The notes: generated from the letters alone by a model not told the origin. 64,000 bases of DNA from an uncultured Candidatus Saccharibacteria bacterium (GCA_964494105.1 CAZBQI010000002.1:18936-82935), one strand, 5' to 3'; counted from the first letter of the stretch, positions 5,982 through 56,300 are shown. Numbers and translations are program-made.

Positions 5982-7454
5982 CTACACGAAGTCAAAATAA
6001 TTATTCTTTATGTTTTTATCAAATTTTACTTTTTTTACCTTGATATACATAATAATTTGAACTGAAAATATAATTCCGTACATTGTAATTAACTGCCAAG
6101 GCAATAAGACCAACTGCTGACTAGCCCAAGATATCTGCGACAATTTTTCAATGCTGAAGACATTAAAGTGTAGTAGCCAACGCGCCGGCCAACCAATCCA
6201 ACCTGAATATACCGGGAACAACATTCCACTAAGACCTGCTAGAAAAGTCAGCAACATCGCTAATGGCACAAGTGGCAAAACTATCAAATTAGCAACAAAG
6301 GAAATTATTGAAACACGACTAAAAATGAATAGGATGAGTGGAAGTGTCATAATTTGAGCACAAAATGTTTCTATCGTTAGTTGCCACAACGCCCCAGGGC
6401 TTTTCTTTGGAAATAGGCGTGCCGAAATAGTGGGCGCCAAAATTAACACCCCATAGAAAGCCAGAAACGATAGATACCAACCAATATCAAACCAAAGGTA
6501 GCTGGGATTTAATCCGGCTGTAATAACTGCAGATACTAAAAGCAGAATACTGGCTTTTATAGTTCGGCCATAATACCAGGCAAGCAAGGCAATGGTTGAT
6601 ACTATAGCTGCACGCATTACAGAGGGACTAAGACCTGTCACCGCCAAAAAACTAAAAATCAATGCAAAAGAAATTGCCGTGGCTAAATACTTTGAAGATC
6701 TAGAAAATACCCGACGTGCAAATCTTACTAAAATTGTCAGATTGTATCCAGACACCGCAACTATATGCATCAGGCCAGTGATAACTAGTGCATCTTCGAG
6801 GCTACTTGGTAATAATGACCTGGTGCCAACTAGCAGACCCAGACCAAGCGAAGCCTGAACTTCGGGCAGAGCATTATATGTTCCAGCTATAAATTTGCTC
6901 CTTAATCTCTCAATATATGATTGGTTTCTGGCAACTAGCGAAATTTGCGCATAGTAAATTTGGCCTTGTTGATTGCCAAGTGAGGGTCGCAATCTGCCTT
7001 CTACCCTTATTACATCATTGCGATTTATTTTTGTCTTGGGGAAACCGCGCACCTTAATACGTCCCCCGCTGGGCACTTGTTCATTGGGTTTAGAAATATA
7101 TAAATTAGTTACCCGAAATTCGATTTGCTTTCTATCCGTTATGCTTGCATCTTCGGCAACCGTGCCGACAATCACTACTTTCTTGTTTAACTCACTCATG
7201 AGCGGAATGTAAGAAGATACTACACTTTGTCCTCTAGCTAGTCCGATATTTAAGAAAAACAAGGCCAAAACCAGAAAGAGAACCTTTTTGTTCTTAAGGA
7301 CCGCAATTAATACTATGAAGTTAGCCACTATTAGCTGCCAATTGGTTGCAACCCCGAAGCGTGACGCCCATAGTCCAAGCAGAAAAGTAGCGCAAGCCAA
7401 TCCTACTAGTCGAGATCTTGTCCAGTTAAATCTTGCAAACGGTGGTTTCATCAA
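5982..7454 (-). CDS. comEC: ComEC/Rec2 family DNA internalization channel (no beta-lactamase domain)
   Basis: N-terminal OB/DUF4131-like region, then a polytopic competence domain (HIVAVSGYNLTIL, FCAQIMTLPLILFIF). 490 aa. Confidence 0.8.
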   Translation of the reverse strand: MMKPPFARFNWTRSRLVGLACATFLLGLWASRFGVATNWQLIVANFIVLIAVLKNKKVLFLVLALFFLNIGLARGQSVVSSYIPLMSELNKKVVIVGTVAEDASITDRKQIEFRVTNLYISKPNEQVPSGGRIKVRGFPKTKINRNDVIRVEGRLRPSLGNQQGQIYYAQISLVARNQSYIERLRSKFIAGTYNALPEVQASLGLGLLVGTRSLLPSSLEDALVITGLMHIVAVSGYNLTILVRFARRVFSRSSKYLATAISFALIFSFLAVTGLSPSVMRAAIVSTIALLAWYYGRTIKASILLLVSAVITAGLNPSYLWFDIGWYLSFLAFYGVLILAPTISARLFPKKSPGALWQLTIETFCAQIMTLPLILFIFSRVSIISFVANLIVLPLVPLAMLLTFLAGLSGMLFPVYSGWIGWPARWLLHFNVFSIEKLSQISWASQQLVLLPWQLITMYGIIFSVQIIMYIKVKKVKFDKNIKNNYFDFV

Positions 7455-7706: not shown

Positions 7707-8399
7707 TCATGGGCTGTAGCAATAATTTGTGATGCCTTCAGCTAGAATTTCTTCAGAACTTAATACTCTCTTTCCAAGTACCTCGTAATCTAGTGCTAGT
7801 GGCAATTCAGTACAACCCAGAATTATTGCATCTGCTTTTTGGTCAAACATTGAAGACAAAACTTCCACATACTCTTTGCGTGCAGGTATTTCTTTGATGC
7901 CCGCAATGACACTTCTTATGACGATGTCACACGTTTCAATTTGGGCTGCATTTGGCTTTATCAGTTCTATACCGCGTTTTTCAAGAGCACTTTCATAAAT
8001 GCCGGAAGCAAGTAAAACAGGGGTGCCCAGCAGGGCAACTTTTGAATATCCAAGTAGTTTGCATCTTTCTGCAACTAGCTCAACCATCGATAGAAATAGA
8101 ATAGATACTTCTTTTTCTAGGTCTTGTAATAGAATATGTACCGTATTGCTTCCAATACACATTGCTTTGCATCCGGCACGTTCGAGTCCCTTAGCTGCTT
8201 CGATTAGCATTTGTCTCGCTTCTTCTAAATGCTTCTTGCTGGAAATAAAATCAGGCACAGGCACAGAAGCTATCAGCATGTCCGGATAGTCTTCGTTATT
8301 AACTGCACCGTGATTCGTTTGAGCCGAAGTTACTATCTTTTGATATAGAAAGGCCGTTGCTTGAGGGCCGACTCCACCGATTATTCCAATTCTTTTCAT
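7707..8399 (-). CDS. aspartate/glutamate racemase family protein
   Basis: Begins MKRIGIIGGVGPQATAFLYQKIV. Two conserved Cys regions (CIGSNTVH, ILGCTELP). Confidence 0.8.
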   Translation of the reverse strand: MKRIGIIGGVGPQATAFLYQKIVTSAQTNHGAVNNEDYPDMLIASVPVPDFISSKKHLEEARQMLIEAAKGLERAGCKAMCIGSNTVHILLQDLEKEVSILFLSMVELVAERCKLLGYSKVALLGTPVLLASGIYESALEKRGIELIKPNAAQIETCDIVIRSVIAGIKEIPARKEYVEVLSSMFDQKADAIILGCTELPLALDYEVLGKRVLSSEEILAEGITNYCYSP

Positions 8400-8643
8400 G
8401 TGTTAATTGTATCAAGAAAACAGAGGATAATTAGCTCGATTTTTTGTATAAGTCATTGAAGTGCCCCGCCTGTCTGGCGGACAGGTCGGGCAGACTGGTG
8501 GGATAAACGCTTCGCTACTCGCAATGATCGCATGCTCGAAGTAAACTTCTGCGCGTGCTCCCTGTGATCGAACCCGCCCTAGCTGGCGCTGGGTTCTCAT
8601 CATGTCATTCCAATTCTTTACTCACCTATGGTGAACAAAGAAT

Positions 8644-11134: not shown

Positions 11135-12054
11135 TATTGTGTTTGCTCCTTTAGTTTATTAACTATTAATTTATGTAGAGCGTCAGTCTTCTCGTCAGTG
11201 CCCACCTTGCTCACAATATCGGGGGCAGCATTCACTTCTAGAATATAGTGTTTACCACTATTTTTATCAATTATTACATCTACACCACTAAACTCGCGCC
11301 GGTGTAGTTTGCCCGCTCTTATTACATCGTTTCTTATTTGTGCCGAAAAATCTTTAGCATCAACAATTTTTCCCTCGGCACCTGCAGAAGTATTGTTAAG
11401 GTGCGTTGAATCATCAAGCCGCGTGCGCTTAATTACCAAAGCGATTTCGCTACCGGCAACCAGAAAACGATAATCACAATCGTTAGCGATATATCCCTGT
11501 AGAACGAAGTCTATTTCTGGTCTGGAATTTACAATTTCTGAAGCGCGCTTAGCATTGTTAGCAAGAAAGTTATTGCTACCACGAGTTCCGTTTATGTCTT
11601 TAACTACCATGGGGAAGCCAAAATTCTTATCGCTATTGATAAATTTGATCATGTGTTTTGGTGTGGAATAATAAGTATTAGGAACGGGGATGCCAGCTAC
11701 TGCTAGCTTCACTAAGTCAGTCAGTTTTGTCATTGAGCGCTTGGAGTGTACTTCACTATCAAAAAACTTATTGCCCTTGTACTTTAAATAAAGTGCAGCT
11801 GCTGTAGCACGCTCATACTGCCGTTGCCACAGTCGAAAGAACACCAAATCGTAATCTGAAATGTCGCGTTTATTGAGGGGATCGTAAATTGTGAGTATAT
11901 TATTTCTGATTAAGAATTCAAGTTCCTTGATAGCGCCCTTATAGGCACGATACCCGTGCGTAGAAGATTTTTTACCTACCTGCTCCATTAAATCGTCGTA
12001 GTTGGGGCGCAGACGGTTTTTGGCATAACTGAATAAAAATAAGACGTCTTTCAT
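11134..12054 (-). CDS. second ATP-grasp domain ligase (RimK/GshB-like paralog)
   Basis: 306 aa. PMVVKDINGTRGSNNFLANN, CDYRFLVAGSEI, and a C-terminal GVDVIIDKNSGKHYILEVNAAP. Diverged from the rimK downstream. Confidence 0.65.
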   Translation of the reverse strand: MKDVLFLFSYAKNRLRPNYDDLMEQVGKKSSTHGYRAYKGAIKELEFLIRNNILTIYDPLNKRDISDYDLVFFRLWQRQYERATAAALYLKYKGNKFFDSEVHSKRSMTKLTDLVKLAVAGIPVPNTYYSTPKHMIKFINSDKNFGFPMVVKDINGTRGSNNFLANNAKRASEIVNSRPEIDFVLQGYIANDCDYRFLVAGSEIALVIKRTRLDDSTHLNNTSAGAEGKIVDAKDFSAQIRNDVIRAGKLHRREFSGVDVIIDKNSGKHYILEVNAAPDIVSKVGTDEKTDALHKLIVNKLKEQTQ

Positions 12055-21963: not shown

Positions 21964-23538
21964 CTAAAATTTATCAGCACGAAATATAGCTTTGTGCACT
22001 TTGTCGGTAACCATTCGTGCCTCCGGCAGCTTAAGGACTATACTTATTCCCAAGTATGAAATTCCGGCAATCAAACATACGGTGAGGAATTTTGGTGCCA
22101 ATATCCAGAATCCTTGATCGCCAGCAAACAGCGGTAAAATACGCGACACCCCTACGTATGTAACTGCTGTCATAAAAACGGTCCCCAAGATAATTTTTAC
22201 GATATGGATAAACAGCTTCTTGTTAATAAAAAACGCATTATATTTGCGCAGCAAAACTAATAATGCGATAGCTTCAAAGGCTGCGACCGCGCTTTGTGCC
22301 ATTGCCAAGCCTTCTACCTGGAAACGTCGGACTAGAACGATAGCCAAAATAACATTAAGAGTAATTGTTGCCAGACTAACGAGAAGTGGAGTCTTTGTGT
22401 CCTGATAAGCATAGAATACCCTAGAGACAGACCGAATTAGCGACTGAAAGATAATTGCGACAGCAAACCAACCTAGCACCGCAGCGGTGGTAGGATCTCC
22501 AAATCCCAGTACTAAACGTACAATGTAGCCCCGCAAAATTAAGGTTAGCGCAGCTACAGGTATTACCATCCAAAGCAGCGCCTCGACTGTCTTGCGCATC
22601 TGAGATTTGAGTCCACTGGTATTGGAACTTGCCGCTTGGTGAGAAATTGTTGGGAACACTGCCGTTGCTATGGCCGTGCCAATTAGTGCGATTGGTACAT
22701 TTTTTATGTTAAAGCCATACTGATAGGCGGTTATGCTGCCAACAGCTAAGCCAGAGGCAATCGCTCGCTCAATAACTGCAGTCAAATAAATAATTCCTTC
22801 GTTTAGAGAACGCGGAACTATTAAAACTAAAACTTTGCGAAACCCTTTATTCTTCCAAAATATCTTTGGTTCATACTTAAATCCTAAGCCAACCAGCCCT
22901 AGGCTCTGAACAATCAACTGCAAACCAGCACCCGCCAATACGCCAACGGCCACACCAGTTATGCCATAGATAGGGGTCAACACAACAATGCCAAAAATTA
23001 TTCCAAGGTTATAGATTACCGGTGCCAACGCATAGAAAAAGAATCGGCCAAAGGTTTGCTGCATACTGGCAAAAACAGTTGAAAGCGAAAATAGAAACGG
23101 ATTCAGCGCAATAATTCGCGTGAGCTCAACGGCAGTATCATGACGAGCAGCATCGAATGCTGGTGCGACCACGTAAATTAATTGATCCGCAAATACAAAA
23201 ATTAGAACACTGCCAATAAGTGTAATTATCCCCAAAAAATTAAAGATGCTAGAGGCCAGTTCCCAAGCGGACTTTTTATTGTGATGAACTAACCGCTCGG
23301 TAAAAACCGGGATAAAAGTAACACTCAGAGCTCCAGAAACAAGCAAGTAAAACATAAGGTCCGGCATAGAAAAAGCAGCAAAGTAAGCATCTAGAGTACC
23401 ACCAATACCAAATTGGGCAGCCAGCAGTCGATCCCTTAGTAAGCCGAGTATAGCGCTGGCAAAATATGATGCCGCCAATAGCGCCGCAGCGTTGCCAACT
23501 GTTATTTTGGCATTGGCTCGGGTGATAATGTTTTTCAT
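21964..23538 (-). CDS. murJ: lipid II flippase MurJ
   Basis: About 14 TM helices. The start was trimmed to the internal ATG (MKNIITRAN...LLAASYFASAILGLLRDRLLAAQFG), because the listed 560 aa ORF has an unlikely N-terminal extension. Confidence 0.85.
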   Translation of the reverse strand: MKNIITRANAKITVGNAAALLAASYFASAILGLLRDRLLAAQFGIGGTLDAYFAAFSMPDLMFYLLVSGALSVTFIPVFTERLVHHNKKSAWELASSIFNFLGIITLIGSVLIFVFADQLIYVVAPAFDAARHDTAVELTRIIALNPFLFSLSTVFASMQQTFGRFFFYALAPVIYNLGIIFGIVVLTPIYGITGVAVGVLAGAGLQLIVQSLGLVGLGFKYEPKIFWKNKGFRKVLVLIVPRSLNEGIIYLTAVIERAIASGLAVGSITAYQYGFNIKNVPIALIGTAIATAVFPTISHQAASSNTSGLKSQMRKTVEALLWMVIPVAALTLILRGYIVRLVLGFGDPTTAAVLGWFAVAIIFQSLIRSVSRVFYAYQDTKTPLLVSLATITLNVILAIVLVRRFQVEGLAMAQSAVAAFEAIALLVLLRKYNAFFINKKLFIHIVKIILGTVFMTAVTYVGVSRILPLFAGDQGFWILAPKFLTVCLIAGISYLGISIVLKLPEARMVTDKVHKAIFRADKF

Positions 23539-23586
23539 CTTATAGGTATTATACAGAGACTGCACTCGGGGTGATACTATAAAAGT

Positions 23587-24108
23587 ATGATTACTCATCA
23601 AGGATTCAGGCTTAACTACTGTCCAAGCTGTAAGGCTAAGCTTCAATTAGGACCTATTCGCGATAGTGTCGAATGCCCAATCGAAAATAAAATACTTTTT
23701 ATCAACCCTGCGCCATGCATCAATGTATACATAATGAAGAATAAGCATGTTTTGCTTGGGAAAAGGGCTATCGACCCGTTTAAAGGCTCTATTGATGTTA
23801 TTGGTGGCTTTGTTGACAGAAATGAAAGCGTAGAAGAGACTGTTAGGCGCGAAGCCCTAGAAGAAACCGGTTTAAGCATAGAAATCACAAAATACCTGGG
23901 TAGTGCTTACGATACCTATGGTCAAGCTGATAAACCGCTTGTTTGCATGGCGTTTGTGGCTAGGGTGTTAAATGCCAGCGAAGAACCCAAGGCAAACGAT
24001 GATGTTGCGGATCTTTTCTGGCATCCTCTTAAGGCAGAAATGCCAAAGTTTGAATTTACCAGCGCCAAATTTTTTTACAAATTGCTACAGGCAGAATTAG
24101 CTAGCTGA
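23587..24108 (+). CDS. NUDIX hydrolase with N-terminal zinc ribbon (NudC-like)
   Basis: Nudix box GGFVDRNESVEETVRREALEETGL. N-terminal CPSC...C cysteines. Confidence 0.6.
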   Translation: MITHQGFRLNYCPSCKAKLQLGPIRDSVECPIENKILFINPAPCINVYIMKNKHVLLGKRAIDPFKGSIDVIGGFVDRNESVEETVRREALEETGLSIEITKYLGSAYDTYGQADKPLVCMAFVARVLNASEEPKANDDVADLFWHPLKAEMPKFEFTSAKFFYKLLQAELAS

Positions 24109-26897: not shown

Positions 26898-27084
26898 TCT
26901 TTTATTATCGTCTATCTGTTTGCTATAAGAAAATGCTCAAGTTTGATCTGGATTCAAAAGACAAAATTTATAGCTAACACATAGTCTGTTTGAAATTTTG
27001 AAAGGAGGGGTGGCGAAAAGTTGATATAATTCTTGTTAATGTAACTCAGCAAGAATAGTGAAAACTATTTGTATATTCCGACTT

Positions 27085-27159
27085 GGTGGCAGTGGGTGGA
27101 TTTGAACCACCGACCAACAGCTTATGAGTCTGCTGCTCTACCGCTGAGCTACACTGCCC
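27085..27159 (-). tRNA. tRNA with CAT anticodon (elongator Met or Ile2/lysidine type)
   Basis: Manual fold: acceptor GGCAGTG/CACTGCC, D-arm GCTC-AGCGGTA-GAGC, anticodon loop CTCATAA, T-arm GGTGG-TTCAAAT-CCACC, CCA encoded. There are no three G-C pairs in the anticodon stem, so it is not an initiator. It lies 187 bp from tilS. Confidence 0.8.
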
Positions 27160-32787: not shown

Positions 32788-32862
32788 TGGTAGCGGGGGC
32801 AGGATTCGAACCTGCGACCTCCGGGTTATGAGCCCGACGAGCTGCCACTGCTCTACCCCGCG
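32788..32862 (-). tRNA. initiator tRNA-fMet (anticodon CAT)
   Basis: Manual fold: 1:72 mismatch (C·U). Three consecutive G-C pairs at the bottom of the anticodon stem (TCGGG/CCCGG), loop CTCATAA, T-arm GCAGG-TTCGAAT-CCTGC, CCA encoded. These are initiator hallmarks. Confidence 0.85.
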
Positions 32863-33533: not shown

Positions 33534-33609
33534 GGGGGTGTAGCTCACCGGTCAGAGCAGGTGGCTCATAACCACTTGGTAGATGGTTCGACTCCATCCA
33601 CCCCCACCA
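33534..33609 (+). tRNA. tRNA with CAT anticodon (elongator Met or Ile2/lysidine type)
   Basis: Manual fold: acceptor GGGGGTG/CACCCCC, D-arm GCTC-ACCGGTCA-GAGC, anticodon stem GGTGG/CCACT with loop CTCATAA, T-arm GATGG-TTCGACT-CCATC, CCA encoded. 76 nt. Confidence 0.85.
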
Positions 33610-37981: not shown

Positions 37982-39247
37982 GTGAAGCATATATATTTTG
38001 TCGGTATAGGAGGAGCAGGCCTTTGTCCGCTCGCGCAACTAGCTAAGAATGCCGGATATTTAGTAACTGGTTCTGATGCCGAAGCATCAAGAAATACACA
38101 CATCCTCGAGACTTTAAACATTAATGTACAAATCGGCCAGTCAGGCAAAGAAATCGCCACCACACATAAAAAGCAACCTATTGACTGGATGGTTGTAAGC
38201 TCGTCAATCAAAAATGACCACCCGGAAATTGCCTTTGCTAAGGAACACGGAATTAAAATATCAAAGCGCGATGAACTAATTAACACTGTATTGAGAGACA
38301 AAAATCTAAAACTTATTGCCGTCAGTGGCACTCACGGCAAAACTACTACAACTGCCATGATTGCATGGTTGTTTTTGCAACTAGGTGAACCTGCTAGCTA
38401 TGTTGTGGGTACTAATCTAAGCTTTGGCCCAAGCGGTCATTATCAATCAAATTCTGATTACCTTGTTCTTGAGGCTGATGAATTCGATCGCCACATGCTT
38501 GCCTACCAGCCTTTCTGTTCAATCTTGCCATCAGTAGAATACGACCACCCCGACACGTACAAAACCGTTGATGACTATAAGATAGCTTTTTGCGACTTTG
38601 TCGCAAACTCGCAGCGTGTGTTTAGCTGGGAAGATGTAGGTAAGTATTTGTCCCTCACAAGCAAAAATCTGCATCTGTATAAATACGACGATTCCTTGAT
38701 TAAGAAGCTTAGTCTGCCAGGAATAACTACAAGGCAAAATGCTTTTTTGGCAGTGCAACTATTTCAATACTTATTCCCAAAAACAGACTTAGAAAAAATA
38801 ATTAGTGCTATAAATAGCTTCCCCGGCACCGAACGCCGAATGGAAAAGCTTGGAAATAACTTATACAGTGACTATGCCCACCACCCTACTGAAATTGCCG
38901 CTACCGTACAAACGGCCAAGGAAATTAACGACAAAATTGTTGTCTTCTATCAGCCTCACCAGAATATTCGTCAGCACGAAATTCAAAACAAATATGGTAA
39001 TTGTTTTCGCGGCGTAGAAAAAGTCTACTGGCTACCAACTTATTTGAGCCGTGAAGATCCGAAACTAAAAACTCTAAGCGCACATGAACTAATTAATCAG
39101 CTAAGTAATCCGCAAATTGCTGAATCGGCCGAAATGAATAGCGATTTAGTCCAGAAAGTTAACGAGCACAGAAAGAACGGTGAACTAGTAATAATTATGG
39201 GCGCCGGGTCTATTGACCCTTGGGCACGAAAGAATATTTTATCTTAG
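37982..39247 (+). CDS. murC: Mur ligase family, UDP-N-acetylmuramate--L-alanine ligase (MurC/Mpl-like)
   Basis: N-terminal Rossmann region IYFVGIGGAGLCPLAQLAKNAGYLVTGSD, and a P-loop AVSGTHGKTTTTAMIAWLF. 421 aa. Confidence 0.75.
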   Translation: MKHIYFVGIGGAGLCPLAQLAKNAGYLVTGSDAEASRNTHILETLNINVQIGQSGKEIATTHKKQPIDWMVVSSSIKNDHPEIAFAKEHGIKISKRDELINTVLRDKNLKLIAVSGTHGKTTTTAMIAWLFLQLGEPASYVVGTNLSFGPSGHYQSNSDYLVLEADEFDRHMLAYQPFCSILPSVEYDHPDTYKTVDDYKIAFCDFVANSQRVFSWEDVGKYLSLTSKNLHLYKYDDSLIKKLSLPGITTRQNAFLAVQLFQYLFPKTDLEKIISAINSFPGTERRMEKLGNNLYSDYAHHPTEIAATVQTAKEINDKIVVFYQPHQNIRQHEIQNKYGNCFRGVEKVYWLPTYLSREDPKLKTLSAHELINQLSNPQIAESAEMNSDLVQKVNEHRKNGELVIIMGAGSIDPWARKNILS

Positions 39248-51076: not shown

Positions 51077-51721
51077 ATGTCGAAAACTTTCTGGATAATT
51101 CTAGCTATACTAGTCGCCGGTTTAATAGGGATATTTGCAGTCGCAAATCGTAGTTCAGAAGCACCCAAAGAAGAAATCTCAAATCCAACGGCAATAAGAG
51201 AAAGTGATCATGTAGAAGGACCGGCAGACGCAAAAGTCACACTTGTTGAATATGGTGACTTCCAGTGCCCGGCTTGTGCGGCTTCATTCAAAATAGTTAA
51301 GGAACTCCGAACACAGTACCAAGATAAAGCCAGGTTTGTATTTCGCCACTTTCCGCTGAGTAATATTCATCCAAATGCTATGGCTGCCTCGCGCGCTGCT
51401 GAAGCCGCCGGTATGCAGGGCAAGTTTTTTGAAATGCATGACCTATTATATGAGAATCAGAAAGAATGGAGCACAAGCACTAATGCAGGTGAATTTTTTA
51501 ATCAATATGCACAAGAGATTGGTATAAACGTTGATCAATTCGAAAAAGATAGCAATTCCTCTGAGACAATTGACGCCATTAATCAAGATATCGCTATCAG
51601 CAAATCACTACAGATTAGCGCTACGCCAACATTTTACATCAACGATCAGAAATTAGAGTCGTTGCCCCGTTCACTGGCAGAATTTAAGGCAAAGTTAGAC
51701 GAGGCTCTTAATAAGCCTTAG
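51077..51721 (+). CDS. DsbA family thiol:disulfide oxidoreductase
   Basis: N-terminal TM anchor, then a thioredoxin fold with CPAC active site (GDFQCPACAASFKI), and cis-Pro context FRHFPL. Confidence 0.75.
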   Translation: MSKTFWIILAILVAGLIGIFAVANRSSEAPKEEISNPTAIRESDHVEGPADAKVTLVEYGDFQCPACAASFKIVKELRTQYQDKARFVFRHFPLSNIHPNAMAASRAAEAAGMQGKFFEMHDLLYENQKEWSTSTNAGEFFNQYAQEIGINVDQFEKDSNSSETIDAINQDIAISKSLQISATPTFYINDQKLESLPRSLAEFKAKLDEALNKP

Positions 51722-51728
51722 CTCTAGG

Positions 51729-52304
51729 CTATTTAACAAGCTTGGCTTCAATCACCTCTCGACCATCACTACTACCCGATAACGTACATGAATAAAGGGT
51801 TAAGCGAGACTCGCTAACGTTCTCGATTTCTGTTTGATTTGGTTTTACTTTGTAGATTTTTTCGATTCTGTATTTGTATTTTTTTCCATTCCAGTGAACT
51901 TCAATTTCATCTCCGGTTACAAGCTTATTGATATCGTAGAATACACTAGCTTCTTTTACCAAATTTGGGGTTTGCGCAAACTTAAACCGATGACCGGTTA
52001 ATATAAAATTTCCACCCATTTCCGGATCACCTCGTTCTGGATATCTGTGCCATACGCCTTTTTCTAAAACAGAATTATCACCTTCTAATATTTCGCGATT
52101 TACATTTATCTTCTTGATGATTACTCGATTTTCTTTAGCTACCTCGATATTCGATAGCTTTTTTGTAGGAATTAAGGTCGGCGCATTTAATAAAATCAAC
52201 AAATACAAACCGCCGGTAACTAAAATAGCGGAAAGCAAGGCCATGGCGAATATCACTTTTTTTGAACGAAAGCGCCCTGCTTTCGTCTGAGCTTTGTTGC
52301 TCAT
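51729..52304 (-). CDS. sortase family transpeptidase (likely class E, LAxTG-specific)
   Basis: N-terminal TM. His in ILTGHRF, TLxTC Cys (LTLYSCT) and an Arg downstream. It sits next to three LADTG proteins. Confidence 0.7.
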   Translation of the reverse strand: MSNKAQTKAGRFRSKKVIFAMALLSAILVTGGLYLLILLNAPTLIPTKKLSNIEVAKENRVIIKKINVNREILEGDNSVLEKGVWHRYPERGDPEMGGNFILTGHRFKFAQTPNLVKEASVFYDINKLVTGDEIEVHWNGKKYKYRIEKIYKVKPNQTEIENVSESRLTLYSCTLSGSSDGREVIEAKLVK

Positions 52305-52777
52305 CTTAAATTGTTAGTCGGCTGCTGATTTTGAGGTTTTTCTTCTATTTGAAACGCACCCACATTAACGATTAGTTTTCGCTCTGGACTGTAGATGTAA
52401 GCTTTTTTAGCATTGGCAAAAACCACAACTCTATCACCATTCTTGGCATCTTTGTAAAAATCTTTGTCCTTTAGTTGGTTTATATCTGTAATGGTTGCAA
52501 CCACAGGATCTTCATTTGTAGGCATAATAATTATTTGTCGCATTTCGCCTAGTAACTCTTGGGTTTGAGTCTTACTCAGTTCTTGCTGACCCTGAACAGT
52601 TGATAGTTTTTCAACTTCCTTTCTAGTTTCGGCATATTTTGTGTAAAGGAAAGCAACACCACCAGCAAGAGCGAGCAAAATTAGTAAAATTAAAAGCCAA
52701 AGTAACTTGCTTTTAACTGACTTCTTGGATTTCTTATTGTGATTCGAATTTGGTAATGTCGCTTCTAGATCTGCCAT
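52301..52777 (-). CDS. hypothetical membrane-anchored protein
   Basis: 158 aa: basic N-terminus, one TM helix, a coiled coil, then a small C-terminal domain. Overlaps the sortase stop by 4 bp. Confidence 0.4.
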   Translation of the reverse strand: MADLEATLPNSNHNKKSKKSVKSKLLWLLILLILLALAGGVAFLYTKYAETRKEVEKLSTVQGQQELSKTQTQELLGEMRQIIIMPTNEDPVVATITDINQLKDKDFYKDAKNGDRVVVFANAKKAYIYSPERKLIVNVGAFQIEEKPQNQQPTNNLR

Positions 52778-52794
52778 ATGAGTCTCCTGCTACG

Positions 52795-53670
52795 TTATTT
52801 CTTTATTCGGATACTATTAATTTTACCATGATTTAAGCCGTATATTCCGAATATTCCAGATGTAACTAAGGCAAATGCAACAAAAAGAATTAGTCGCGTA
52901 CTACCGCCGGTATCGGCCAAAACTGGCGTAGAACTAGACGCTTGATTTACTGTCGCATTGGCACAATTGGCATCATCATACGTAAGTGTAACCGAGGGTA
53001 GGGTCTCTGTAGTGTTGGCTTGTGAACCATTTGGCGGATCAAAAATTAAGCCCTCAATGATTTCGACGTTTGAGATAACAAACAAATTACTCAAATTCCC
53101 AAAGGTAGTGGCGTACGAGCCACCGGGATGAGTAAATACACTACCAACATTTGTATTACTGCTAACAGAAAGATAGGGAGTAGAAGGCCCCGATACATCA
53201 AAGAGTGCATGACTTGAATTATTTGAGGCCGGATTTGGAATGGTGCCGCTCATGGCAACTATGGTTGAAACAGACGGGCCAACAGCAACGGTCACCGGCG
53301 TTGAACTGGGGCAATTTGTGGCAGTTGACACTACCGCAAAAGCGCCGATTTCGTGCACGGTATTATCTGTTCCGGTGGCTAATGGCTGCGCGTTTAGGCC
53401 GGGGTTAAAGTTGGTGCTTGGTGCGTTTCGCAGTGAAAATGTTGTATCAGTGTTCGGCGCAGCCGAAGCATCGCCGCCGGCTTGAGCAATTGCCAATACA
53501 GTAGCGTTTGGTGCACCCCAGCCGGAGGGAGGAGTAACAACTTCATTTACAGTTGCAGCCTGTACCGAAGTAATGGGTAACAATGATGCCGGTAGCATCA
53601 GTGCCAATCCTAAAATTATGTTTAACAGCTTCTTGACCATTTTTATTTGCTCCACTAAGCGACAACTCAC
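52795..53670 (-). CDS. LADTG-anchored surface protein (paralog A)
   Basis: Signal peptide. The N-terminal domain is shared with 55221..56300 (VTP...LAIAQAG...NPGL...C.S.TPV.V). The C-terminal sorting signal is LADTG + TM + HGKINSIRIKK. Confidence 0.6.
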   Translation of the reverse strand: MSCRLVEQIKMVKKLLNIILGLALMLPASLLPITSVQAATVNEVVTPPSGWGAPNATVLAIAQAGGDASAAPNTDTTFSLRNAPSTNFNPGLNAQPLATGTDNTVHEIGAFAVVSTATNCPSSTPVTVAVGPSVSTIVAMSGTIPNPASNNSSHALFDVSGPSTPYLSVSSNTNVGSVFTHPGGSYATTFGNLSNLFVISNVEIIEGLIFDPPNGSQANTTETLPSVTLTYDDANCANATVNQASSSTPVLADTGGSTRLILFVAFALVTSGIFGIYGLNHGKINSIRIKK

Positions 53671-53728
53671 TTGTATAAACCTATTGTAACATAAAATGCT
53701 TACGGCAACAGCTTAGATGTACTAATTA

Positions 53729-55105
53729 TTACAACAGTATTTTATGCTGGCGCAGAACAAAAATGCCGGCTATGCCCGAGGCAATTAGGCTGAAGGCAAA
53801 GTAAATTGCAAGCTTGGAGCTATCGCCGGTGTCGGCAAGTTCCTCGCTGCTAGCGGCAGCTAGGGTAAAGCTAACAGAGGTGGTGGCAGTTTGGTTAGGG
53901 CCAAATGCAAACTGCCGCGGACTATCACCAACCGCAATTGTACCCGTAGTAACTAGAGTTGTCGGATTACGCACACTTATCTGATCTAGTCCTGCCTCCG
54001 ATACATACAGTTTTGAGAAATCACTAGTAAATGCAGGGAAATATGGTGTTGAGCCAGCTCCAGTATTTACGGTACTAGTTACAGTATTTGAGTTTGTATT
54101 GATAATTGAAATATTGTCGGATGTGGCATTTGCAACCAATAATAATGATTGGTCTTGGTTAAATGCGCTCCCAAGCGGTCCATCCCCAACACTAATAGCA
54201 CTGCCGGAAGTTTCCGTCTGGGTATTGTAAGGCGTTGCTGAGTCTCCACCATTAGAAATAGAGTAGCCGTGTATGTTGTCGGATTTAAGGGGTCCACCTC
54301 CACCAGACGAGGCAAAGGTGCTTAATTGTGTATTTGTAGCAATATTTATCACAGACATCGTACCGCTACCAACATTTGCAACATACACACGCGATGAATC
54401 AGAGCTCATAGCAGGGTAAGCTGGGAAATTTTGGTTATAGCCTGTTACGGCAGCCGAGATTGTAGGGTCAGCTGAGCTATAACGTGTCACAGTGCCACCG
54501 CTAAAATCCCCTGCCTCCGAACTAACATAAAAATAAGTGCCATCGGGCGTGTAATTCACTGCAATTGCATGGGCGCCCGCAGCTGTTAGGTTATGAGTAA
54601 TTACCGGCACCTCCGGGTTACTTAAACTCCAGACCTTTATTGCATTTGCGCCAAATCCAGAGACACTAACCATTTGTGTACCACTTGGGCTAACCACCAC
54701 GTTGTTTTGACTAACACTAGAGCTAATATCGGCACCAATCTTTTCATCGGTGACTGCGTTTATGACAGAGATTGTGGAATCTCCAGAATTTGGCACATAA
54801 GCATACTGCACACTCGCCGTCGCCTCAATTGTTTTAGCGCCTGCGCTCTGGCCCGTAACATTAAGGCTCCAGTTGCCCGAGTTGTCTGAAGTGGTGGTGC
54901 CAACGGCGGTGCCGTTGACCTTGACTGTAATGGCGCGCTTGGCGGTGGCAGTACCGGTAACGGTAAAACTTGTGCCGATGGCGGTAGAGCCATTGCTTGG
55001 CGAGGTAATCGCAACTGAAGTGGCAGCCGAGACAGCTAAAGGCATGAACGCCATTGTAGCAACCAGTAAAACTGCAGCTACAAATGAAGTGAGCCTTTTG
55101 AACAT
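53729..55105 (-). CDS. LADTG-anchored surface protein with YVTN-type beta-propeller repeats
   Basis: Signal peptide, Ig-like N-domain, and repeated motifs (YVPNSGDSTISVINAVTD, VYVANVGSGTMSVINIATN, LLVANATSDNISIINTNSN, LYVSEAGLDQISVRNPTT). C-terminus EELADTGDSSKLAIYFAFSLIASGIAGIFVLRQHKILL. Confidence 0.65.
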   Translation of the reverse strand: MFKRLTSFVAAVLLVATMAFMPLAVSAATSVAITSPSNGSTAIGTSFTVTGTATAKRAITVKVNGTAVGTTTSDNSGNWSLNVTGQSAGAKTIEATASVQYAYVPNSGDSTISVINAVTDEKIGADISSSVSQNNVVVSPSGTQMVSVSGFGANAIKVWSLSNPEVPVITHNLTAAGAHAIAVNYTPDGTYFYVSSEAGDFSGGTVTRYSSADPTISAAVTGYNQNFPAYPAMSSDSSRVYVANVGSGTMSVINIATNTQLSTFASSGGGGPLKSDNIHGYSISNGGDSATPYNTQTETSGSAISVGDGPLGSAFNQDQSLLLVANATSDNISIINTNSNTVTSTVNTGAGSTPYFPAFTSDFSKLYVSEAGLDQISVRNPTTLVTTGTIAVGDSPRQFAFGPNQTATTSVSFTLAAASSEELADTGDSSKLAIYFAFSLIASGIAGIFVLRQHKILL

Positions 55106-55220
55106 TGTTTGTTTCTCCTCAATTAACTTCTCTTAACTCTGTCACACATTTTAACACAAATCGCTTGTGGTTCACCAAGGCTAAGACTGCTCGTGGCGTT
55201 AAGGTTGCTTGAATCTGTTC

Positions 55221-56300
55221 TTACAGCAGTTTTTTGTGTCGACGTAGAACAAATGTCCCAGCTACGCCCGAGGCAACTAGGCTGAAGGCAAAGTAAAGTG
55301 CAAGCTTGGAGCTATCGCCGGTGTCGGCTAGAGTCGCCCCTGATTCAGTAACTGTAATTGTGACTGTTACGGTAGTGGTGCCACCATTACCGTCGCTAAC
55401 TTGTACCGTAAGTGTGTATTTTCCCGCTGGCACATTTGCCCTTGTGGTGGTGATGTTGCCGTTAGCCGAGTTAATAGCAAAGTAGCCGGCGCCATTACCA
55501 GCGGTTATGCTGTAAGCTAGAGTGTCGCCATTTGGATCTGTAGCACTATAGCTTGATCCGTTTACAATAACTGCTCCATTTGCAGTAGCTGAAGAAACAA
55601 TTGTTGTGGAGACACTCGCATTAGACACCACCGGAGCTAATGGGCAGGTAGCGTTGTCGTAACTGAGAGTGATTGTTGGTAAGCCTAACACGGCAGTACC
55701 TTGATAATGAGTACCGCCAGAAAATGTAACAGCCTCAAAGTTAACAAACGAAGCAATATTGGCTAAGTTTCCAGCGGTTGTGCTCATAGTCTGGCCACTC
55801 CCTGACGCACTGTACATTCCATTGGTATCACGAGAAGTCTGATTATAACCGGCAAGAGTAACTCCTCCGTTGATATCAACTAATGCACTCACAATTGTGT
55901 ATTCATCATTACCTGGTTGGGCATTTTGAAGTTCGCGGGTGTAGCTGCTAAACGTTACATCTACCGGCGTATTGCTCGAGCAGGTGCTAAGTACAGAAGG
56001 AATAGTAATCATAGAAAATTCATTACCCGACCCACCGGCTGGCTCCGGGCTATCTAGCCCCGGATTTATTACTGTACCCGGAGTGTTACGAGATGCAATT
56101 GTAACATTTGGAAGCGTTGTGCCGGCCTGTGCTATAGCAAGGAACCCCCCGCTACCGGGTTGCCAGGCTGTAGGGGTAACAGTTTCGGTAACCGCCAACG
56201 CATGAACAGACGTAGTTGATAAAAACATTGGCGCTATAGAACCAATTGTAAATACCACTAAGGTGATAATTAATTTTAGTTTATCTGCTAGGTTGCTCAT
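55221..56300 (-). CDS. LADTG-anchored surface protein with cadherin-like domain (paralog B)
   Basis: Signal peptide. Cadherin-repeat signature ATDPNGDTLAYSITAGNGAGYFAINSANGNITT...GKYTLTVQVSDGNGGTTTVTVTITV. C-terminus TLADTGDSSKLALYFAFSLVASGVAGTFVLRRHKKLL. Confidence 0.65.
   Translation of the reverse strand: MSNLADKLKLIITLVVFTIGSIAPMFLSTTSVHALAVTETVTPTAWQPGSGGFLAIAQAGTTLPNVTIASRNTPGTVINPGLDSPEPAGGSGNEFSMITIPSVLSTCSSNTPVDVTFSSYTRELQNAQPGNDEYTIVSALVDINGGVTLAGYNQTSRDTNGMYSASGSGQTMSTTAGNLANIASFVNFEAVTFSGGTHYQGTAVLGLPTITLSYDNATCPLAPVVSNASVSTTIVSSATANGAVIVNGSSYSATDPNGDTLAYSITAGNGAGYFAINSANGNITTTRANVPAGKYTLTVQVSDGNGGTTTVTVTITVTESGATLADTGDSSKLALYFAFSLVASGVAGTFVLRRHKKLL

Follow-up and report, generated by a model that had tools for sequence, protein, structure and literature searches.

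We analysed a 64,000-nucleotide (nt) stretch of DNA from an uncultured Candidatus Saccharibacteria bacterium (GCA_964494105.1 CAZBQI010000002.1:18936-82935), here called the window, in which all positions are counted from the first letter of the stretch. The analysis centred on a gene cluster that encodes a sortase, three secreted proteins with C-terminal sorting signals, a membrane protein referred to as X and, on the opposite strand, a DsbA-like oxidoreductase. A preliminary description, made from the sequence alone, had drawn attention to this cluster, and its claims are taken up below where the results bear on them.

Genes of the sortase locus

Five genes on the minus strand, in the order S1-S2-S3-X-sortase, span positions 56300 to 51729 (Table 1). 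S1, S2 and S3 each encode a protein with an N-terminal signal-peptide-like leader and, at the C-terminus, the pentapeptide LADTG, then a stretch of about 20 hydrophobic residues and finally a K/R tail, so that the earlier report of signal peptides and sorting signals on three consecutive genes was borne out. We scanned the six frames of the window for LxxTG or xPxTG motifs with a hydrophobic span and then a basic tail behind them; exactly three such signals were found, and all of them were LADTG. Since the six frames contain only these three, we regard the clustering as real rather than as a product of chance. The window holds one sortase gene, which is the last gene of the cluster. We consider it likely that the five genes form an operon by which this Saccharibacterium displays three surface proteins through sortase-mediated cell-wall anchoring.

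The intergenic gaps measure 115 nt (S1/S2), about 58 nt (S2/S3), 17 nt (S3/X) and -4 nt (X/sortase). In the last case, the stop codon of X and the start codon of the sortase overlap as ATGA (4 nt), through which translation of the sortase would be coupled to that of X in this lineage. The preliminary description had placed the sortase directly downstream of the three substrate genes; the three are indeed consecutive, but gene X, missed at that time, lies between them and the sortase. Similarly, the DsbA-like gene is on the opposite strand, as described, yet it is not upstream of the sortase: it converges on the 3' end of the sortase gene, and the two stop codons are 7 nt apart. At the other end of the cluster, an amino-acid permease gene on the plus strand diverges upstream of S1.

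Two start codons differ between our gene calls and public ones. For S3, the public call P0062 starts at Met11 (ATG at 53640), which is probably the better start and gives a protein of 281 aa. For the sortase, the public call P0001 starts at Met21 and gives 171 aa; we preferred the longer form because the Met21 start drops a basic segment that is kept in most homologs.

Table 1. Positions of the genes and repeats of the sortase locus in the window
Feature	Position	Strand	Product or description
S1	55221-56300	minus	359 aa, secreted sortase substrate (putative)
S2	53729-55105	minus	458 aa, secreted sortase substrate (putative)
S3	52795-53670	minus	291 aa from GTG, secreted sortase substrate (putative)
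X	52301-52777	minus	158 aa, bitopic membrane protein
Sortase	51729-52304	minus	191 aa, type II membrane protein
DsbA-like gene	51077-51721	plus	DsbA/MdbA/BdbD-type membrane-anchored thiol-disulfide oxidoreductase
114-nt direct repeat, copy 1	53726-53839		S2 3' end, sorting-signal-coding
114-nt direct repeat, copy 2	55218-55331		S1 3' end, sorting-signal-coding

The sortase and its clade

The product of the sortase gene scored 68.2 bits against the Pfam family Sortase (PF04203, peptidase C60; gathering cut-off 26.6), in agreement with the earlier assignment, and 37.1 bits against TIGR01076, slightly below the cut-off of that model (39.35). The catalytic residues His105 (in LTGHR), Cys173 (in LTLYSC) and Arg182 (in DGREV) were invariant across 42 sortase homologs. 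Further, the homologs form a clade with the conserved signature WHR[YF]PERGDPExGGNF, which reads WHRYPERGDPExGGNF in the window enzyme. At the N-terminus, the segment KAGRFRSKK precedes a transmembrane (TM) helix and the catalytic domain is extracytoplasmic, an arrangement that fits a type II membrane anchor.

We classified the enzyme by hidden Markov model (HMM) and profile bit scores. The top-scoring class model was that of class D (NF033746, 43.9 bits; cut-off 165), followed by the class D LPxTATN-specific model (NF058671, 42.5 bits; cut-off 140), class C (NF033745, 39.4 bits; cut-off 160), class E (NF033747, 36.7 bits; cut-off 160) and class F (19 bits; cut-off 166). The class A and class B models were not among the NCBIfam matches of the sortase. 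All 42 aligned family members likewise scored far below the class cut-offs, and the best single E-value among them, which was obtained with class E (5.3e-19), was still short of the cut-off. A relative that is 46% identical to the window sortase (P0039) carries the name 'class E sortase' in NCBI nr, yet it reached 45.4 bits against NF033747; public annotation sometimes calls the clade 'class E' without HMM support.

The solved structure closest to the sortase was the class D enzyme SrtD of C. perfringens (CpSrtD, PDB 4d70; 44 bits with phmmer). A profile of the clade scored 72 bits against 4d70 and about 38-48 bits against other class D, C, E and A structures, including 41 bits against the class E enzyme SrtE1 (5cuw); class A structures scored at most 38 bits, below those of classes D, C and E. 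Thus, the sortase is not a class A housekeeping enzyme with LPxTG preference, which the preliminary description had named as the finding that would speak against its reading: no class A model matched, class A structures scored lower, and the P3 residue of the adjacent sorting signals is Ala, not Pro. Class D was rejected as well, because its models remained below their cut-offs and the substrates are of the LADTG type, not of the LPxTA(TN) or LPQTGS type. CpSrtD resembles the window enzyme in overall length, in its loop pattern and in an aromatic residue (Phe) at the position of Tyr88 of the window enzyme; it differs in preferring LPQTGS and in failing to process LAETG (PMC5148588).

Tyr88 bears on the relation to class E. 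A conserved Tyr in the beta3/beta4 loop (Tyr229 of SrtE1) has been proposed to select Ala at P3, and CpSrtD has Phe at that position (Kattke et al., PMC5148588). When aligned by HMMER, Tyr88 falls, behind an insertion of one residue, opposite the GH-Y Tyr of 5go5 (a class E structure) and opposite the CpSrtD Phe. We examined this position and the neighbouring substrates across the clade. A metagenome scan gave 80 further loci, which together with the genome and contig loci yielded 77 distinct clade sortases. The residue at the Tyr88 position was Phe in 33 of these and Tyr in 19, and enzymes of the Phe type adjoined LAxTG substrates 25 times. The sortase of locus L006 (P0003), for example, has WHRF and lies beside three LADTG substrates.

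Genes with a tripartite sorting signal that neighbour the 77 sortases mostly carried LAxTG (37, against 4 with LPxTG and 1 with LVNTG). The LAxTG signals comprised LANTG (10), LADTG (10), LAPTG (8), LASTG (5), LAGTG (2), LAATG (1) and LAITG (1). A substrate gene was located directly upstream of the sortase on the same strand in 22 of the 50 loci that have at least 400 nt of upstream sequence, and operons of two or three substrates with one common motif were present at three loci (L027, L052 and L053). Since multi-substrate operons and the pairing with LAxTG recur in relatives, the architecture in the window is typical of the clade. Further, the motifs aligned as sorting signals in homologs, as had been anticipated: in an alignment of S1 orthologs, LADTG, LASTG and LAATG occupy one and the same position.

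Two loci of the clade have features of their own. A Saccharibacteria contig (L003) contains two sortase genes, at 7956-8519 and 11561-11905, which flank LASTG proteins. At L049, an open reading frame of 80 aa (2648-2890) just upstream of the sortase ends with LPNTG followed by a TM span and a basic tail. A signal peptide is not obvious in it, so that its start may be mis-called, or it may represent a mini-substrate.

These data allow us to weigh whether the enzyme is a divergent but bona fide class E housekeeping sortase that performs general LAxTG anchoring for the whole cell. The preliminary description had implied class E identity from the LAxTG motif, and the motif of the substrates, the alignment of Tyr88 with the GH-Y Tyr of 5go5, the database name of P0039 and the best single E-value in the family are all in line with it. 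Like the class E enzymes of S. coelicolor (SrtE1) and A. oris (SrtA), the window sortase also has an N-terminal membrane anchor. However, the class E model gave scores far below its cut-off for both the window enzyme and P0039; the class D and class C scores were equal or better for the window enzyme, and the clade profile matched CpSrtD considerably better than SrtE1. The window enzyme further differs from class E in the one-residue insertion (WH-R-Y), in its occurrence in Patescibacteria, not Actinobacteria, and in having no SafA-like partner with an FPW motif. Moreover, the 'diagnostic' Tyr is less common than Phe in the clade, and Phe-type enzymes, including that of L006, adjoin LAxTG substrates all the same. 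The implied class E identity was therefore not upheld, and we consider a divergent class E housekeeping enzyme unlikely. We conclude from the profile comparisons that the sortase cannot be shown to belong to class E or to another curated class. As judged by HMM, it belongs to a Patescibacteria clade that is class-E-like in its paired motif and lies outside classes A-F. The pairing with LAxTG despite Phe at the position of the proposed Tyr bears on the recognition of Ala at P3 and on sortase engineering.

Substrate proteins, gene X and the DsbA-like neighbour

The S1 protein has a signal peptide at about residues 1-34 (cleavage between SVHA and LAV) and ends with LADTG (324-328), a hydrophobic span and RRHKKLL. 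Residues from about 222 to 318 matched Big_9 (40.3 bits) and Cadherin (34.5 bits; cut-off 28.8). In an AlphaFold2 (AF2) model, this cadherin-like domain was predicted with a predicted local distance difference test (pLDDT) score above 90, and Foldseek matched it to extracellular cadherin (EC) domains of protocadherins and cadherins (E ~1e-6). The domain is a single cadherin-like Ig domain with the motif DPNGD...YSI...F.I...G.I...Y.L.V..D.G, and the calcium motifs LDRE and DxNDN are absent from the S1 translation. The 'textbook' cadherin-repeat signature of the preliminary description was thus overstated, although the cadherin-like domain itself is real. The S1 domain resembles bacterial cadherin-like/Big_9 adhesin domains in matching Cadherin, Big_9 and protocadherin EC domains.

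In S2, the predicted signal peptide cleavage site lies between AVSA and ATS, and the C-terminus consists of LADTG (423-427), a hydrophobic span and RQHKILL. S2 is free of cysteine. It scored 75.2 bits, over four stretches, against the YVTN repeat model TIGR02276 (cut-off 27.85), and its best solved relative was the surface-layer protein of Methanosarcina mazei (PDB 1l0q, E 1e-25), which combines a YVTN propeller with PKD; the YVTN beta-propeller that had been noticed in one of the three proteins was thereby confirmed. Additional matches were to Lactonase/YNCE propeller models and, weakly, to an N-terminal Ig-like Big_6 domain. In comparison with cadherin-like/Big_9 adhesins and 1l0q, the domains at this locus are single and are carried by short proteins with sortase signals.

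S3 consists of one domain, here called the N-domain, and of a C-terminus with LADTG (251-255), a hydrophobic span and a basic tail. The N-domain is paralogous to the N-terminal domain of S1 (33% identity over 256 residues, E 4e-20), in accordance with the earlier statement that two of the proteins share an N-terminal domain. S3 had no match in Pfam or NCBIfam, and an exhaustive HMMER search with its N-domain (window 52921-53556) returned only 12 matches at E<=1e-3 among 1.84 billion cluster representatives. Judging from these searches, the N-domain is lineage-restricted. It contains two cysteines, C107 and C219 in S1 and C120 and C236 in S3, and this pair was invariant in 22 homologs. Structure modelling of the substrates, which had been suggested earlier, supported the cadherin-like domain of S1 and gave a low-confidence model for the N-domain; owing to this low confidence (pLDDT 50-78), we left the fold of the N-domain unassigned. 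A copy of the N-domain was also observed in a protein of 968 aa (P0146), at residues 727-931.

A series of sorting-signal genes followed by a sortase gene recalls Gram-positive pilus islands such as spaABC-srtC, in which a class C-like polymerase would join S1-S3 into a covalent heteromeric pilus of tip, shaft and base. The score with the class C model was about equal to those with the D and E models, and several class C structures were among the PDB matches of the sortase. However, the class C score is far below the 160-bit cut-off, and S1, S2 and S3 lack a YPK-type pilin motif, an E-box, CnaA/CnaB and pilin domains; their folds are propeller and cadherin-like. Further, mature S3 is lysine-free and the mature part of S1 has one lysine, at a variable position where the consensus is Thr. 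A Lys nucleophile for polymerisation is therefore lacking, and we judge assembly into a pilus very unlikely compared with cell-wall anchoring of the three proteins.

The four genome loci with related sortases all belong to Saccharibacteria or Saccharimonadales metagenome-assembled genomes (MAGs), in line with a Saccharibacterium as the source; the preliminary description had taken the organism to be probably epibiotic or host-attached. Two close relatives, L005 and L006, encode sortases that are 68% and 66% identical, respectively, to the window enzyme (pairwise BLAST) and share its synteny: three LADTG genes, X, the sortase, the convergent DsbA gene, aspartyl-tRNA synthetase (AspRS) and HPPK. 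In L005, each of the three substrates has an ortholog (82%, 65% and 73% identity, values similar to those of the housekeeping neighbours), but the order is S2-S3-S1. At L006, two of the substrates are propeller proteins and the third is unrelated (852 aa as called, or 884 aa if read from the first in-frame start); the N-domain family is not represented there. Over the 114-nt direct repeat, the 3' ends of S1 and S2 in the window are 86% identical, although the two genes are otherwise unrelated. This repeat agrees with recombination at the segment that encodes the sorting signal, but also with plain constraint on that segment. Taken with the permutation in L005 and the other substrates of L006, it hints at shuffling of substrate cassettes by recombination.

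A bolder proposal would be that LAxTG specificity arose in this clade apart from class E, that the substrates make up a swappable cassette of host-binding adhesins and that X is a Patescibacteria-specific display accessory. An independent origin is suggested by the fact that most clade members do not have the class E Tyr; taken as a whole, we hold the proposal to be rather unlikely. In its extreme version, LAxTG, which is also the signal of class E sortases in the Actinobacteria on which cultivated Saccharibacteria grow, might even allow epibiont proteins to be cross-anchored to the host wall.

The protein encoded by gene X has a basic N-terminus, a single TM helix and a long helix, and its small beta domain is conserved, with the motif LPxGEDPVVATIxD...FYKxAKNGD...IVNVG. 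Its AF2 model had a pLDDT of 78, and above 90 in the four-strand beta domain. X matched no Pfam or NCBIfam family, and Foldseek found nothing in PDB at E<=0.001 (best E 0.4). Homologs of X were found at least 61 times across Patescibacteria, and a LytR_C domain was fused to 5 of the 36 aligned members. In five of seven more distant genome contexts, X lies directly downstream of a gene for a Peptidase_S74 protein of 889-1644 aa (X at 7001-7522 in L007, 7001-7513 in L009, 7001-7462 in L011, 6001-6486 in L093 and 6001-6513 in L094), and no sortase gene is adjacent in these five loci. The Peptidase_S74 proteins resemble a surface fibre, and some have collagen repeats. In L007 and L009, an S1-like LADTG protein heads the surface-protein cluster that holds X.

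A role of X as a sortase-specific partner is weakened by these contexts, in which X follows Peptidase_S74 genes without a sortase, and by its occurrence within three genes of a sortase only in L016 among about 85 loci. Since X accompanies Peptidase_S74 genes where there is no sortase, it looks like a general envelope or surface-appendage factor, and probably X serves envelope or surface display in Patescibacteria generally rather than the sortase specifically. We also compared X with SafA, a sortase-associated antagonist of signal peptidase in Actinobacteria, which is a small TM protein with an exoplasmic FPW motif and is encoded immediately downstream of a sortase (PMC9282373). X is not a SafA analogue: it is 158 aa long, has no FPW motif and is encoded on the wrong side, upstream of the sortase.

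The product of the convergent gene matched Thioredoxin_4 (105.8 bits) and DSBA (60.4 bits), and contains CPAC (residues 64-67), with a hydrophobic helix at the N-terminus as membrane anchor. The presence of a DsbA-family oxidoreductase beside the locus, noted earlier, was thereby verified. Searches against PDB matched 7unn, 4pwo (a DsbA entry) and 3eu3 (BdbD) at E ~1e-13, and by this comparison the protein resembles Gram-positive-type DsbA/BdbD structures. Because two cysteines of the N-domain are invariant, a DsbA-type oxidase is a plausible folding factor for S1 and S3, and the neighbouring enzyme probably forms the disulfide in their N-domains. As a conserved component of the system, the DsbA-like protein was rejected at the level of the family: the adjacency recurs only in L005 and L006 and amounts to local synteny, and we therefore did not count the gene as part of the conserved system.

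Probable wall anchoring and candidate host-attachment proteins

Saccharibacteria and other Patescibacteria live on host bacteria, and work on their attachment has centred on type IV pili. To our knowledge, covalently wall-anchored proteins of Patescibacteria are largely unexplored. The locus suggests the following route to the surface. S1, S2 and S3 would be exported by Sec and their signal peptides removed, and the C-terminal hydrophobic span and basic tail would retain them in the membrane. Cys173 of the sortase, with His105 and Arg182, would then cleave LADTG between Thr and Gly to give a thioacyl intermediate, which an amine of lipid II or peptidoglycan would resolve, leaving S1-S3 covalently attached to the cell wall. 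The displayed folds are of binding types (cadherin-like Ig, YVTN propeller and cysteine-pair domain), and the proteins are thus plausible adhesins towards a host cell. Since cultivated Saccharibacteria are described as epibionts that grow on Actinobacteria (PMC10633639), it is reasonable, by analogy, to regard S1-S3 as candidate host-attachment proteins, as the preliminary description did.

The C-termini of S1-S3 might instead be plain TM anchors, or the sortase might release the proteins to water or to another acceptor, so that they would be held in the membrane or shed and not joined to the wall. Some large surface proteins encoded near X in L009 and L011 end with a TM span and a basic tail that no LxxTG precedes. 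However, both orthologs and paralogs strictly retain the pentapeptide immediately before the TM span, and throughout the family it is found together with the sortase gene. Further, genes for a lipid II flippase and a Mur ligase are present in the window, from which it follows that lipid II and peptidoglycan would be made. Membrane retention or shedding alone is therefore highly improbable beside sortase-mediated attachment to the wall.

Several points weigh against wall display of adhesins by a five-gene operon. A consensus scan for promoters and terminators gave fewer sites than shuffled sequence, none of which defined an operon. Because the enzyme falls into none of the curated classes, both its putative specificity and its putative acceptor are deduced from the gene neighbourhood only. 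Two of the neighbours are seldom kept beside the sortase: X is near a sortase gene only in the window, L005, L006 and, three genes away, L016, and the DsbA gene is absent from the approximately 85 sortase-family loci other than L005 and L006. As for the substrates, it is the type of fold that suggests adhesion, and S-layer or structural surface proteins, too, contain YVTN propellers and cadherin-like domains. Moreover, the PDB matches of the S1 model stem from the cadherin-like domain, and its N-domain contributes a part of low confidence.

Sortases and DsbA-like oxidases of the Candidate Phyla Radiation (CPR) have already been published, and the present findings do not overturn current understanding. 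In the relevant passages of Meheust et al. (2019, PMC6744442), a sortase family, fam000526, is reported to occur in over half of the CPR genomes, and an MdbA-like oxidoreductase family with a membrane anchor and CxxC, fam000318, is reported as enriched. Judged by these descriptions, the locus in the window would be an instance of both families; substrates, motifs, sortase class and operon structure are not described in those passages. At the level of titles, abstracts and sortase passages, the literature that we searched contained no description of sortase substrates or motifs in Saccharibacteria or CPR. The locus adds some modest observations, namely an unclassified LAxTG-associated sortase clade with frequent Phe in place of the class E Tyr, a lineage-restricted domain with a cysteine pair, and gene X. 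It also offers three short candidates for the study of epibiont surface biology: a cadherin-like protein, a YVTN propeller protein and a protein that consists of the cysteine-pair domain.

Elsewhere in the window, genes encode MurJ (the lipid II flippase; 21964-23646), the Mur ligase (37982-39247) and ComEC (a competence channel; 5982-7454), a content that fits a peptidoglycan-containing, DNA-scavenging Patescibacterium. The Rfam matches in the window were four tRNAs only, and three tRNA-Met genes lie within 6.5 kb of one another (27084-27158, 32788-32862 and 33534-33609).

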